Shown: positions 253 to 7,702, counted from the first letter of the stretch. The stretch is DNA of 64,000 nucleotides from Elsinoe ampelina (GCA_010093995.1 ML992504.1:620001-684000); one strand, 5' to 3'. Notes: generated by a model from the sequence alone, not told the origin. Program-made: numbers and translations.

Positions 253-1882
253 ATGAAGACCGCAATCCTCTCTGCCTTTATTGGGGCTGCCCTGTGTACT
301 CCGCAGGGTCCCGACTACAGCCGTATGACATCTTCTGGACGTGCGAAAGCGACCTGTGAGATTCTACGGTTCACGAACAGAGCCGCCACATCGTTTCCCA
401 ACGAGACTGCTTATGATCTGGACAATAATGGTAATTACAGTTGCCAATTGTGGACGCAACCCTTACTCACTGCCGCCAGACTACTACTCGATGGCATCCT
501 CATTAGGACCAGCCTGCGTATATGCACCGAGCAGTAACAGAGATCTTAGTGCTGCCGTGCTACTGCTTCGTGCTACTAGAGCGCCTTTCGCTGTTCGCAG
601 TGGCGGTCACATGCCCGTAGAGGGGGCCAACGGTATCGGCTCGGATGGTGTACTCTTGTCAATGACAAACTTCACCCAGCTATCTCTCAGCCAAGACAAG
701 ACATCCGTGAGAATTGGAGCCTCGACGATTTGGAATCAGGTGTACAAATTGCTTGAGCCAGAGGGACTCGTGGTAGTAGGTGGTCGTATTGGTCTACCAG
801 GCGTTCCCGGTCTGGTACTTGGAGGCGGCATCAGCTTTCTGGGTCAGCAGTACGGATGGGCGGCTAACAACGTCCTGAGCTTCACCGTGAGTAATGCCAC
901 CTCGATACACTTCTCCTACTGATGCATGCAGTGCGTATTGTCTGATGGTCGGATCGTGGCAGCATCAGCCCGGCAGAACCCCGACCTCTTCTGGGCTCTT
1001 AAGGGGGGCGGTAACTCTTTCGCCCTTGTCACCGAGCTCGAACTGAGAACCTACCCTTCAGCAACGGTCTCCGTCGGTCAAGTCGAGTATGGTACCGGTC
1101 CCGACGTTCGATCGAAGTGGATCAGCGCCATCGTCCACTTCGCCCACAACGGGCCCTCTGACCCTCGCGCCGCCATCATCCCCAACTCCGGCCGCAACCC
1201 CCGCCAACCAGTGGAAGACTACGCCGCCTTCCGCTTCCTCAACGGCGCCGATCCCGCCCCTAAGATCCTCGAGAACTTCACCGCCCCATTCCTTCCCAGC
1301 GTGACAAACGACACCTACCGCGCCCGCTCCCTCTACAACTGGACCCTCGAGATCGACCCTCAACTCGACGCAGGCCTCGCCGGTTTCCGAAACCGCTATA
1401 CCGGCCTTAGCATCCCAGCCGACGAGCGTGCATTAGACATCACACTCCAGACCTTTTTCCAGGTGCTGGATGAAAGCCCCATTCCCAGCTTCCCGTACTA
1501 CATCGCCAGCATCATCCCCATGCCCATGACGAAAGCTTACTTCCAAGCCGCGGTCGACCGGGGTGGGGATCCAATGGGCTTGACGCCCGACGATGCTCCG
1601 TTTCTCTGGGTGGAGATGAGCGAGACGTACACTCTCCCCGAGCAAGATGCGATTGTGACCAAATTTGTGAAGGATGTGGATGCGAGGATCAGGGGGGCGT
1701 TGAAGGAGGCTGGGTTCAAGGAGAACAAGTATGTGTATCTGAACTCGGCGGATAAGTGGCAGGATGTGTTCGGGGGCTATAAGAGGGAGAATGTGGATAG
1801 ATTGAGGAGGATAAGGAGGAGGTATGATCCGGAGGGGCTGTTTACTACGCAGATGAGGGGTGGGTTCAAGGTTGGGCTCTGA
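253..1882 (+). CDS. Secreted FAD-binding oxidoreductase (FAD_binding_4 + BBE-like C-terminus), 2 introns
   Basis: Signal-like MKTAILSAFIGAALC; RSGGH flavinylation motif; GVPGLVLGGG; PDLFWALKGGGNSF; C-terminal YLN...RRYDPEGLF. GT-AG introns join ORFs 253-537, 341-922 and 926-1882. Confidence 0.9.
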
Positions 1883-2142
1883 CATACTCACATACAGCTT
1901 CGTGAACCAACTATAGATCGTAGGGGTACTATCTCTGTTGCATCTCGACATGTAGTACAAAGCGGTGTGGCTCAATCCACCCCGTAGAGGCGCTAGTGTG
2001 GAGTTGCGGCACGACATCGCCCTTGTGTCACCTTATGCGGGGTCCAACGGACCGCCAGAGTGCCTTGCCGTTTGCCTTCTCATTCTCACGCTGCATCCGA
2101 CACGCACACACGAGATCCAGCTTCCCTACCAACAACAAGGAA

Positions 2143-3162
2143 ATGGCACACTTCTGGTCCAACTCGTCCGGTCTGTTCCGGCCTAAAAGCTCCTCACGGT
2201 ACCGCCGTCTACCAACTGCTGACGCCATCCCCATGGATAACATGACAGATCAAGATACATCTGCCAATCGTGTCCACCATCGCGTTAACAGAAGATACAG
2301 CTGGCTGCTTGTTGTGAATTTGATCTTGTTCCTGATGAACGCTCTTCTGTTGGCTGCTTTGGTCAAATCAAATGACAAGGACGTTTCCCAGTCCATCTAC
2401 TGTGAGCTCTGCCGTGTCCGCTGTTTATCAGAGACACTAATGCTATCAGCTCCTGCCCAGTCAGCCGTCGAATACAAGCCTATTGTGTATTCCAGTGGAT
2501 TCGGCATAGAGAAGTCGCCATTTCAAGGACCTCCATCTGATGAGAACAACGAACTCTGGTCCGACTTGTACAACTGTGAGCGTCCTGCACTTCCAGGCTC
2601 TAGTGTCGTACTGACGAGACAGTCGGTATTACACGGCTAAGTACCGACGAAGCACGACCTCTCGAGAACAAGACACTACCACTCCCTGATCAGGAAGGCG
2701 GTTACATCGTGCAGCTTTCAGTCTTTCATCAGCTTCATTGTCTTGTAAGTCTTGTTGTCTCTGTGCTCAATCACCGCTAACGATCAAAGAATCTAGTACG
2801 AAGGGGTCTCTATGGCGAGGTCGATTTTTCCAATATCGATGACTTGCTCGGTATCGAACATCTTGACCACTGCATCGATACCATACGTCAAGGAATCATG
2901 GTGCGATACCTGCGTGCATCCAGGAAAGGGGAGACTGTGATCTGACTTGAAATAGTGCCATAGCGACGTCACGCCTTTAACATTCGCACGTCAAGATAAG
3001 ACAGGACCGATGAAAGCGGTGGCCGAGGTGGTACATTCATGCAGGAATTTCGAACGAGTGCAGCTGTGGGCATTGAAGCGGCGTGTGAAGGAGAACTTTG
3101 ACAGAATGGCAGTGGTCGATAATGATCCGCTTGGATGGGGAAGCTATCAATACGTGCCTTGA
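2143..3162 (+). CDS. UstYa/DUF3328-family oxidase #1 (5 exons)
   Basis: N-terminal TM helix (WLLVVNLILFLMNALLLAALV). The spliced protein has VFHQLHCLNLVR and EHLDHCIDTIRQGIMCHSDVTP, plus HSCRNFE. Stop TGA at 3160-3162. Confidence 0.92.
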
Positions 3163-3190
3163 GGCGGTCCACCCCTGGCACAAGTCAAGA

Positions 3191-5198: not shown

Positions 5199-5368
5199 TC
5201 GAAGTACGCAAGCTTTCTATCGTTCTCATTTCTCGCATGACTGGTCTTGATTAGTCGTAGCATGACGTTCCTTTGCAAACGGAGGACAGCAACAATCATA
5301 GTGCTGACATGAATCCATTTCATTCATTACGTTTCCAATTTGCTCTGCATCACCTGGTCTGCAAATCG

Positions 5369-6753
5369 TTAATACCCGTGCTTTGACAGGAATTCTGTAA
5401 GTAGTTTCTCCCCGTCCGCTCGTCGATCGCTCAATTGCTCTTCGGAACTATTCCCAACTACAACAGGATGAACAAGCTTGAATGGCAGCAGCTGGGAGGA
5501 CAGCCAGAACAGCTCCGAAAGAGTGGTCAAGCCCGGAATAGTGCTTGGTCTGTAGAGTCCGCGATCGTGCAATGCATCATCCCACGCTTTCGCTTGCGGC
5601 CACTTGATTTCGTCCGTCGCGGCAGGCAATGGCTCTGGAAAGCCATTGAGCATTGCATCATTGAGCGTGGCTGCTTCTTTCCCTTCCATCGGATCCGGAA
5701 AAGTGCCAATGCCGAAGCCCAGGGACCTGAAGAACTCATCGGCCACGGTAGCGATATGGGCAAAGTCGAAATCGATTAGCGCAGTGACTTTCAGCGTCGT
5801 CTTGTCGTAGAGAAGGTTGTCAGTTGCTATCGAGGTTAGAAATCGTCAATTGCTTAATCACATCGGACATACAAAGGTCGGCATGGACAAGTCTCTTGTC
5901 AGTTGCGGTCGCGGTGCGCATCAGGCCCGGATATCCATCCATCAAGAATGTCTCCAAGCGGTCTCGGACACCATTGGCATGCCAGCCTGCGATGTGGCTA
6001 TTTTTGTCGGCCTTTGTGAGCTTGGATCGTATCGTACCCAAGACGAGCTCCGCATAGGTCTGGAACGGGCCTCCGTCGAGGATGCTCATCGCGGAGCTAA
6101 CCATGCTTCCATCCGTGGTGTAAGTCAACCCTCCATATTGCTTGATACTCTCCGGGACGTCGAATCGTTGAAGCGCGCCAATGACATCTGCCATTTGACC
6201 CAGGATAATCTTCTGCTTGTCCAATTCCATTGCTTCAAAGTCCTGAGCTAAGGGCTGGCCAGGCATATACTCTTGCACGATCCAGCCTTGGTGGCCCCCT
6301 TTCGCGCTTCCCCATGCGAAGACGCGGGCGACCAGGTTAGTCCCATCATTGCGAAGAAGAGCAGCACGACCAAGGGCGAGGCTGGCGACCTCATTCTCCA
6401 CTCGGACCTGATCGTTGTAACCAGACACCGGATTTGGTAGGCGAACAATGAACTGACTTGCGTCGGTCGGAACGGGCTCCGTCCCGTATTGTGTACCGAT
6501 CCGCTGGAAGGTGTCGGCCTGGATTTGCGCCTCCACAAGATAGACAAAATTGTTGTATGGGAAGGGGAAATCGGCCTCGTAAGCAACAGGCTGGATCTTT
6601 GTGACCTGAAAATGTCAGTCCTAGTGCAGGAAGACGGCGTAGTGCAGCATCTGATTCGACCTTTATGTGATATCTCTCCGTCAGAAGTTCGTTGATAAAG
6701 GTGAGACGGGTCTGGTACCCTTCAGCGTTTGAATTTGACGCAGCAGGCGCCAT
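5369..6753 (-). CDS. APH/choline-kinase-like phosphotransferase (3 exons)
   Basis: Spliced protein: FPFPYNNFVY, RVENEVASL, WIVQEYMPG, the catalytic motif VHADLSTDNLLY (spanning an intron) and ALIDFDFA. Confidence 0.88.
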
Positions 6754-6927
6754 CTTCAATATACAAGTATCGGCGGTGCTCAAGAAGGTTAACAAGAAGT
6801 ATGGTAGCCGTCTCGCGGTTAAAAAAAACCCCCCACCAGTTCGGGCCTTGGGCAGGTGTTTGTGGGGAAGCACGATCGGTCACTGTGGCAACGGTATTCT
6901 CCTTCATTGTTGGAAATAATTCGGCTA

Positions 6928-7702
6928 TCAACTGAGTAGGTGTTGGAGCGTCATACCACGAGCTATTGAGTCAATGCGGAGTGGCGTCTTGCTGAAATGT
7001 TGCAATGCTCTTTTCATGCTCGTCGTGCTGCGACAGCGGTGGGATTCGTCCATACCGTCTATGACAAACGTGCCTTTCAGAGGGTCTGACGGATCGGGTA
7101 CCATGTGAGGATGTTCGAGAGTATCGTCTGCAGCGCACGCTATCCCCTGTGATGCACAATTATATTGATGACGATTTGCAAAGTCGGCCTCTGTGCCTCA
7201 CCTGTGCAAGATAGTCAAAGCAGTGGGTCCAGTGATCACTGTCATAAGCTCCAGGTTTGTTGTTCAATTCATCGTGTGCATGCAAATGCCCTTTGAGCAT
7301 ATCCAAACAGTGCAGCTGGTGGTACATAGATACGCCGTACGACGAATGTATCCCTTGTGTAGATACTGTTGCCAGGAAACTGCTGCCATCCTGCGGTGTC
7401 GCAAGATCGCCATCGCTGAAAGCATGCAGCCCGTGCTCGATTGATGCATTTCTCGTCTCTGGAGCCGAGAAGATTCGGTCCTCCACAGGCGGATTGGGCG
7501 TTTCTGGTGGCATAGCGGTTCCCAGCACGAGATCCTTGGTTGTCACAGTATGGTATCGCTGCTTATGATTAGCGACAAGTACTGCCATCACGTCGCTGGA
7601 CGCCGGGATTACCATGCTTGTCAATGCGATCTGGAACATCACTGTGGAGAACACCCCCGCAGCAAATCCAGTAACGCGTCTCCAGTCCACCCGCAAATGC
7701 AT
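6928..7702 (-). CDS. UstYa/DUF3328-family oxidase #3
   Basis: N-terminal hydrophobic segment; YGVSMYHQLHCLDML; DHWTHCFDYLAQ|GIACAADDTLE; SHRCRS. Stop TGA at 6930-6928. Confidence 0.9.

Follow-up and report, generated by a model that had tools for sequence, protein, structure and literature searches.

A compact Elsinoe ampelina locus with a conserved repeat precursor, UstYa proteins, and an APH-fold kinase as a candidate dikaritin-like peptide pathway

To our knowledge, few classes of fungal peptides that are made by ribosomes and then modified post-translationally (RiPPs) are known, and most predicted clusters with UstYa genes that we know of have no recognisable precursor. UstYa-type enzymes form Tyr-ether macrocycles in ustiloxin and asperipin-2a, and bacterial RiPP kinases, including class III and IV lanthipeptide synthetases and lasso-peptide kinases, phosphorylate Ser or Thr of a ribosomal peptide, sometimes with subsequent elimination. 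The dikaritin definition of Ding et al. includes a tyrosinase, a methyltransferase, or a transporter, later shown to be non-obligatory, as quoted in a survey of lichen RiPPs (PMC12048977). Here we analyzed a window of 64,000 nucleotides from Elsinoe ampelina (GCA_010093995.1 ML992504.1:620001-684000), in which 6 genes packed into positions 253-7702 encode a repeat-containing precursor, 3 UstYa proteins, an APH-fold kinase, and an oxidase matching flavin adenine dinucleotide (FAD)-binding domains. We put the probability at roughly 55% that this locus encodes a ribosomal peptide pathway resembling those of the dikaritins, in which the core is new and deeply conserved and a kinase of small-molecule type serves as a tailoring or immunity enzyme. 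In distant fungi, members of the peptide family lie beside kinase and oxidase genes of the same kinds, and the family is therefore likely to represent modified peptides of an undescribed group.

Gene models were spliced by hand from three-frame translations, and each model was verified as an open frame. The features of the cluster, with positions counted from the first letter of the window, are as follows:

253-430, 480-886, and 932-1882, plus strand: G1, FAD oxidase of BBE type, 511 aa, with a hydrophobic N-terminus and Pfam matches
2143-2401, 2450-2575, 2623-2744, 2790-2899, and 2955-3162, plus strand: G2, UstYa#1, 274 aa, matching Pfam UstYa
4015-3703, 3652-3458, and 3402-3191, minus strand: G3, UstYa#2, 239 aa, matching Pfam UstYa
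4220-4309, 4361-4447, 4500-4583, 4632-4718, 4776-4931, 4982-5011, and 5061-5198, plus strand: G4, precursor, 223 aa
4361-4405, 4500-4544, 4632-4676, and 4776-4820, plus strand: the four 15-residue units of the precursor
5006-5011 (HW) and then exon 7 at 5061-5198, plus strand: conserved tail of the precursor, the family tail HW[VL]PxGPx[YF]L
6753-6658, 6602-5873, and 5826-5369, minus strand: G5, APH-fold kinase, 427 aa, identical to P0002, a database protein assigned to E. ampelina
7702-7202 and 7146-6928, minus strand: G6, UstYa#3, 239 aa, matching Pfam UstYa

Every feature of the compact 6-gene set described in an initial annotation of this DNA was found in the sequence where it had been placed, and the 2 spacers it gave are exact, with 28 bp (3163-3190) between the convergent stops of UstYa#1 and UstYa#2 and 204 bp (4016-4219) between the divergent starts of UstYa#2 and the precursor. 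The kinase is convergent with the precursor, and their stops are 170 bp apart. Scans of open reading frames (ORFs) over 1-22.5 kb returned no tyrosinase, methyltransferase, peptidase, or transporter domain, in agreement with the earlier remark that no tyrosinase, methyltransferase, or transporter was visible.

The precursor is composed of a hydrophobic, signal-like N-terminus (MKFTEAFLLAVLSLAPIASG, read by eye), 4 units, and a non-repeat C-terminal part of approximately 90 residues, and it is predicted from that N-terminus to be secreted. Its exon 5 matches NCBI hypothetical protein BDZ85DRAFT_85120 [Elsinoe ampelina] (P0001) with 100% identity, and the hand model, which begins at the ATG at 4220, corresponds to residues 32-254 of this protein, the database model of which begins at 4127. 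The 15-residue unit, present in 4 copies that each open their own exon, reads [ST]VD[DE]TATRSQWVSSYN ([ST]-V-D-[DE]-T-A-T-R-S-Q-W-V-S-S-Y) and occurs as TVDETATRSQWVSSYN, SVDETATRSQWVSSYN, and, twice, TVDDTATRSQWVSSYN, giving the precursor the multiple-core feature of dikaritin precursors. As had been proposed, this unit is unlike the cores YAIG, YVIPID, FYYTGY, and GLKLAF. Of the 16 codons compared from unit to unit, 6-9 show synonymous and only 0-2 non-synonymous differences, the spacer and intron DNA separating the units is just 38-47% identical, and Tandem Repeats Finder, run on 1-12 kb, found no DNA array in the precursor gene. The repeats are therefore old, with their peptide sequence kept; the units are under purifying selection, and the peptide, not the DNA, is conserved. 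NCBIfam returned nothing useful for P0001, with a single sub-threshold match to Rmf/CrpP that was disregarded.

A HMMER search over 1.84 billion cluster representatives identified 21 precursor matches at E ≤ 1e-3, of which 17 were fetched, and 16 of these together with P0001 were judged to be members (17 in all). P0075, P0085, and P0086 (873-1296 aa, 24-28% identity) were left out of the family. P0089 (335 aa), which looks unrelated, was fetched and then excluded for its different repeat; its 5 C-terminal repeats, of the type DRSAWI..Y, recall the R-S-x-W core of the unit. A word-based profile search of a 5.8-billion-protein collection gave 22 matches and 13 new members. The family comprises about 30 short proteins (73-254 aa), mostly with a signal-like segment, which share 1-5 units each and end in the tail HW[VL]PxGPx[YF]L followed by approximately 40 conserved residues. 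Members were identified in Xylariales (Nemania, Xylaria, Hypoxylon, Annulohypoxylon, and Anthostomella), Sordariales (Bombardia and Podospora), and Dothideomycetes (Pseudovirgaria and Elsinoe). The repeats noted in the initial annotation are thus borne out by the 4 units, and the protein, a putative precursor, belongs to a conserved family of repeat proteins predicted to be secreted.

The unit consensus across the family (75 units from 31 proteins, 49 of them distinct) is T-V-D-x-T-S-T-R-[GSA]-[QKDR]-W-V-[ST]-S-Y. The extraction pattern fixed positions 2, 3, 8, 12, and 15 and left positions 5, 6, 7, and 11 free, and at these free positions T5 was found in 41, S6 in 37, T7 in 42, and Trp11 in 46 of the 49 distinct units. 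Dibasic variants occur at the invariant Arg8, with Lys before it in P0079 and P0091 (KR) and a second Arg after it in P0073 (RR), and, as far as the sequences go, these point to a proteolytic cut there. Many short database models of the family end at HW, and the E. ampelina intron comes directly after HW; therefore, the short models probably read into the intron.

We searched for recurrence of the gene set in 55 kinase loci from JGI metagenome contigs, scanned with a kinase alignment and searched with unit and tail HMMs, tblastn, and relaxed patterns; an earlier strict regular expression for the unit had matched none. The basis for synteny comprises these contigs and one locus-tag pair in named genomes. 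This pair comes from Anthostomella pinea, with kinase Uu.00g133470 and precursor Uu.00g133480 on contigs of equal length, which from their locus tags we read as consecutive genes. In Bombardia bombarda, kinase and precursor homologues also lie on a contig or contigs of equal length. A precursor-like ORF was identified within approximately 4.5 kb of the kinase in 6 of the 55 loci (L020, L021, L022, L041, L044, and L048) and a UstYa gene near the kinase in 3 (L020, L040, and L044). The precursors of L020 and L022 have one unit and the tail each, L048 has a precursor tail at the contig end, and what is left in L021 is a degenerate tail that contains a stop codon, with no unit, while the nearly identical L041 and L044 encode a signal peptide, a KR site, and 2 copies of a variant unit, ADAYDLRSAWSK[KR].

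On its contig of 7.1 kb, L020 harbors the kinase and the precursor together with 2 UstYa genes, one UstYa#1-like and one UstYa#2-like. By tblastn pieces covering the whole protein, its UstYa#1-like protein shares 50-57% identity with UstYa#1, reaching at most 73% in exon 3, and its UstYa#2-like gene, on the plus strand, shares 45-55% identity with UstYa#2 in exons 2-3 and is likely its orthologue. L020 is an independent copy of the E. ampelina cluster core. In L044, a UstYa#1-like gene accompanies the kinase and the variant precursor, and L040 has the kinase and a UstYa#1-like gene without a precursor. A further ORF of L044, on the minus strand at 1550-2221 and flanked by the UstYa#1-like gene and the variant precursor, encodes 223 aa with a membrane segment and 2 HxxHC motifs; it gave no match to Pfam UstYa at E ≤ 1e-4 and may be a divergent DUF3328 relative.

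The same precursors could be unmodified secreted peptides or repeat proteins, such as a pheromone-like signal, a signal of the KEP type, or an effector, with the UstYa genes serving another substrate. The precursor grammar of signal peptide and repeats, the KR or RR sites of some homologues, and the precursor of L022 without UstYa would suit such a peptide, and a feature search of the Atlas, weak throughout, gave one match to alpha-factor precursors at 0.76 as a lead only. However, UstYa#1 and UstYa#2 orthologues accompany the precursor in both E. ampelina and L020, UstYa#1 accompanies the variant precursor in L044, and no other candidate substrate (an NRPS or a second repeat gene) was found in the first 22 kb of the window. 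We consider an unmodified product quite improbable. In the ESM Atlas, P0094 and the protein of a neighboring gene at 8041 gave nothing at or above 0.9, the best scores being 0.84 (an unnamed cluster) and 0.76 (GCR1_C-like).

Each of the 3 UstYa proteins has an N-terminal hydrophobic (membrane) segment and a pair of HxxHC motifs, HQLHC and HLDHC in UstYa#1, HQLHC and HIDHC in UstYa#2 (where an intron splits HIDHC), and HQLHC and HWTHC in UstYa#3. In a Pfam scan of 14 ORF pieces of the cluster, UstYa (PF11807) was identified in pieces of UstYa#1 (4.5e-10), UstYa#2 (2.2e-13, 2.5e-11, and 0.0049), and UstYa#3 (1.1e-11), so that the 3 proteins with paired HxxHC motifs noted earlier are UstYa/DUF3328 proteins by both motif and domain; the 3 paralogues are only 30-38% identical among themselves, compared with 50-73% between UstYa#1 and its counterpart in L020. 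The FAD oxidase passed the cut-offs for FAD_binding_4 (1.4e-19, 70.6 bits) and BBE (5.1e-5, 23.6 bits against a cut-off of 20.6) and thus matches the domain pair of BBE-like FAD oxidases, FAD_binding_4 with a C-terminal BBE domain, as the initial annotation had anticipated. It is predicted to be secreted, judging by eye from its hydrophobic N-terminus.

The kinase has no signal peptide and is cytosolic by sequence. Both of its motifs are intact, HADLSTDN (the HxDxxxxN loop) and IDFD (the DFD metal-binding motif), and, across 33 aligned kinase sequences, conservation of H272, D274, and D294 is 90% or higher. An AlphaFold2 model (pLDDT 89.4), which includes a helical C-terminal extension, confidently predicts a bilobal APH (small-molecule-kinase) fold; the top Foldseek match was APH(2'')-IVa (E 1.4e-8, probability 1.0), among aminoglycoside, hygromycin, and macrolide phosphotransferases (APH(2''), APH(4), and Mph) at E values of approximately 1e-8 to 1e-6. 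A profile of the kinase family, compared with PDB sequences, matched 3dxp (1.5e-6), APH(2'')-Id (4e-5), and ACAD11 (1.7e-4) in the catalytic-loop region, and phmmer with a single kinase exon against PDB sequences reached only E values of approximately 0.5-0.9. NCBIfam gave nothing useful on the kinase pieces. The Pfam check of the APH assignment came out in 2 ways: the exon pieces of the E. ampelina kinase scored at most 19.6 bits against an APH cut-off of 23.2, whereas the precomputed database Pfam assigns PF01636 to P0002 at its full length and, among 70 homologues that a kinase exon query identified across Pezizomycotina, to most. Kinase ORFs of L020, L021, and L022 scored 26.6-43.5 bits against the same Pfam family. 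With this assignment for P0002, the catalytic motifs, and the APH-like predicted fold, the APH kinase of the initial annotation stands. A complex prediction of the kinase with precursor residues 146-254 (the last unit and the tail) scored 0.00 and gives no verdict either way.

A second, partial copy of the kinase was identified outside the cluster:

10409-10843, plus strand: C-terminal fragment of a second kinase copy, found by tblastn, with a weak APH match (E 0.0019)

This fragment corresponds to residues 278-422 of the kinase at 64% identity, with the N-terminal half missing, and is probably the relic of a decayed kinase duplication.

Contigs of 4 public runs (X1-X4) from 2 studies, the kind of run being only guessed as RNA, were aligned to 1-12 kb. 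These contigs lack exactly the predicted introns, 4 in UstYa#1, 6 in the precursor, and 2 in the kinase, and they also lack 2 introns of the gene at 8041; such intron-free contigs fit processed transcripts and confirm the models of UstYa#1, the precursor, and the kinase. The precursor's second intron (4448-4499) is GT..AT, with a non-canonical 3' end, and the other 5 introns are GT..AG; this second intron is spliced out at that position in contigs of 3 runs, and the P0001 model has the identical junction. Contig cover is thin or absent in some runs over the FAD oxidase, UstYa#3, and the kinase fragment, and nothing was drawn from cover or depth.

Several observations weigh against a modified-peptide pathway built from this gene set. 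No product is known for the pathway. The E. ampelina precursor has no dibasic KR or RR Kex2 site flanking its units and instead reads ...TATR/SQW... and ...SSYNA[KR]P, with TR before the putative core and without a defined C-terminal cut site. HMMER and the profile search found no precursor homologue for E. fawcettii or Sphaceloma murrayae, though kinase orthologues are present. Most kinase loci are solo, with 49 of the 55 showing no precursor. In 10 loci, the kinase has 5 kb or more of flanking sequence on each side (L001, L005, L013, L016, L022, L031, L037, L039, L040, and L050); of these, L022 alone has a precursor and L040 alone a UstYa gene. L022 has precursor and kinase without UstYa in 21 kb, the UstYa protein of L040 has lost the Cys of its first HxxHC motif (HQLHF), and L001, the closest kinase relative (55% identity, flanks of 8.9 and 10 kb), has neither precursor nor UstYa. 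The FAD oxidase is without a counterpart and UstYa#3 without an orthologue in the 55 loci by tblastn; therefore, these 2 proteins are putative members of the pathway. A kinase without a signal peptide, set against a secretory precursor and UstYa proteins, makes direct action topologically awkward. Finally, a spliced plus-strand transcript (3500-4178, with 3667 joined to 3932 at GT..AG) was found in 2 studies antisense to UstYa#2, and one contig of 2414 nt in run X1 spans spliced UstYa#1, this antisense region, and the spliced precursor, which may reflect read-through, a precursor transcript with a long 5' UTR, or merging during assembly.

In L022, a multi-module nonribosomal peptide synthetase (NRPS; AMP-binding, PP-binding, and Condensation domains) lies at 15248-21289, 4 kb downstream of the precursor-kinase pair.

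The RiPP-cluster reading of the initial annotation consequently stands in part, with a real gene set, a conserved repeat family, and recurring kinase and UstYa genes on one side and the missing dibasic sites and the many kinase loci without precursor or UstYa on the other. Synteny likewise divides the set: the precursor, the kinase, UstYa#1, and UstYa#2 recur (by the A. pinea locus tags and in L020, L022, L041, L044, and L048), and the FAD oxidase and UstYa#3 recur nowhere. We regard the view that the repeat-peptide cluster is a modified-peptide pathway as holding a modest edge over its negation.

A kinase tree of 72 rows, from which L009, L010, L027, and L050 were dropped as duplicates together with loci stitched to less than 300 aa, follows taxonomy, and the 5 precursor-linked kinases are scattered in separate clades (5 changes, unclustered in 500 shuffles); therefore, the linkage is old rather than the result of one recent event. 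We read the linkage as old but often broken, or the precursors as lying elsewhere in many genomes, and a kinase role independent of the peptide remains compatible with this reading. Such independence would be complete in a dikaritin-type pathway of UstYa enzymes only, in which the kinase, a conserved housekeeping or small-molecule enzyme, has only synteny in common with the other genes and leaves the peptide untouched. A tree that follows taxonomy like that of a single-copy orthologue, the 49 kinase loci without a precursor, and a kinase that is cytosolic by sequence with the fold of small-molecule kinases are all as this would predict. In contrast, precursor-kinase adjacency in at least 5 separate lineages of 2 classes is far above expectation for a family occurring at most about once per genome, and L022, L048, and L041 present precursor and kinase with no UstYa in view. 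A pathway in which the kinase is a bystander is therefore unlikely, in our judgment, with somewhat more in its favor than an unmodified peptide.

At the opposite end, the precursor and the APH-fold kinase may be the ancestral defining pair, with UstYa frequent yet dispensable, phosphorylated (or phosphorylated and then eliminated) peptides across Pezizomycotina, and the tail as a docking element. We hold this to be a long shot, slightly ahead of the bystander kinase; if true, it would be the first fungal RiPP family with a kinase as its hallmark enzyme.

For the dikaritin-like pathway that we favor, we propose the following sequence of steps. The precursor would enter the ER, where the membrane-anchored, lumen-facing UstYa#1 and UstYa#2 would oxidise each unit; whether UstYa#1 acts on the unit is, by analogy, an even call. 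The most likely reaction at this step, again by analogy, would be a side-chain cross-link via the near-invariant Trp11 and/or Tyr15, and the involvement of Trp or Tyr in a cross-link is itself a doubtful proposition. The units would then be excised, with one cut at or after the invariant Arg8, the position at which some homologues have KR or RR. Lacking a signal peptide, the kinase would meet the processed peptide in the cytosol or act in self-protection; it may phosphorylate a Ser, Thr, or Tyr hydroxyl of the freed peptide, as tailoring or as producer self-protection, and action of the kinase on the peptide is a tentative assignment that we place a little short of even odds. In E. ampelina, the FAD oxidase and UstYa#3 might add lineage-specific steps.

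Beyond the cluster, a gene on the plus strand at 7710-9640 has introns at 7956-8017 and 9240-9293 and a main ORF at 8041-9243 (400 aa). This gene, referred to above as the gene at 8041, has no Pfam or NCBIfam match, and its Atlas score of 0.76 to GCR1_C-type transcription activators is a weak lead; it could be a cluster regulator. The following approximately 13 kb (9300-22300) contain 73 ORFs of at least 75 aa with no Pfam match except the kinase fragment, and housekeeping genes (IMPDH, an IQGAP-like RasGAP, and WD40) begin at approximately 22 kb. The domain-poor stretch at 9.3-22 kb with its kinase relic suggests local rearrangement and, together with the absence of conserved partners for the FAD oxidase and UstYa#3, would be in keeping with a chance neighborhood of 6 unrelated genes packed together, but the precursor, the kinase, and UstYa#1 co-localise repeatedly across classes, and we consider mere coincidence highly improbable. 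A multicopper oxidase (Cu-oxidase_3 and Cu-oxidase) at 61855-63363 on the minus strand is distant from the cluster and has unrelated neighbors.

Literature searches on DUF3328/UstYa with kinase or phosphotransferase, dikaritins, Elsinoe RiPPs, and DUF3328 with tryptophan found no description of such a system, and kinases are not mentioned in the available portion of the lichen RiPP survey (PMC12048977). The motif words of the unit turned up in one paper only, the re-annotation of Podospora anserina (PMC9801653), where Table 3, within the part available, gives the homologue as new predicted CDS 3 with an InterPro signal peptide and no function. No matching system was found and the dikaritin features are partly present; therefore, we rate the locus as a dikaritin-like system, and what appears to be new, on sequence grounds, is a deeply conserved precursor family with a kinase partner. 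This family offers a 15-residue unit kept from Dothideomycetes to Sordariomycetes and a testable enzyme set (UstYa#1, UstYa#2, and the kinase), with one member in P. anserina, a tractable model fungus that is not a pathogen. If a peptide is made, it would extend UstYa enzymes to a new core chemistry, give fungal RiPPs their first kinase step, and, in E. ampelina, provide a candidate secreted metabolite of a grapevine pathogen. Mining for KR-flanked repeats misses precursors of this kind.

Among known systems, Kex2-processed repeat proteins (KEPs; Umemura 2020, PMC7329392) are alike in having secreted precursors with tandem units, and dibasic sites occur in P0079, P0091, and P0073; in contrast, the residues at this place are T-R in E. 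ampelina and in the majority of the family, so not a dibasic pair, and no KR or RR separates the E. ampelina units. The words WVTSY, WVSSY, WVATY, and WVSAY were not found in 3 supplementary files of that study as text, which is possibly incomplete. APH-family kinases (APH(2'')-IVa, the APH(4)-Ia hygromycin kinase, macrolide 2'-phosphotransferases, and the ACAD10/11 kinase domain) share the fold and the HxDxxxxN and DFD motifs with the E. ampelina kinase, which differs in its 11-14% identity, in being approximately 130 residues longer than the bacterial enzymes, and in belonging to a fungal family. In some APH relatives, phosphorylation of peptide antibiotics shields the producer, and ACAD10/11 act by phosphorylation followed by elimination. 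Bacterial RiPP kinases are alike in concept only, as they belong to other kinase families and another domain of life, and no leader-binding domain was seen in the E. ampelina kinase. With the dikaritins (ustiloxin, phomopsin, asperipin-2a, and victorin), the locus shares a precursor with repeated units and a putative signal peptide, adjacent UstYa genes, one transcribed divergently from the precursor, that encode a membrane anchor and paired HxxHC motifs, and an aromatic residue (Tyr) in the conserved unit. Unlike them, it has no KR site after each unit, scans of the first 22 kb found neither a tyrosinase nor a methyltransferase, S41 peptidase, or transporter, and it stands apart in the conservation of the whole 15-residue unit, not of a short core alone, across fungal classes, in the conserved C-terminal tail HW[VL]PxGPx[YF]L, and in the recurrent APH-fold kinase beside the precursor.

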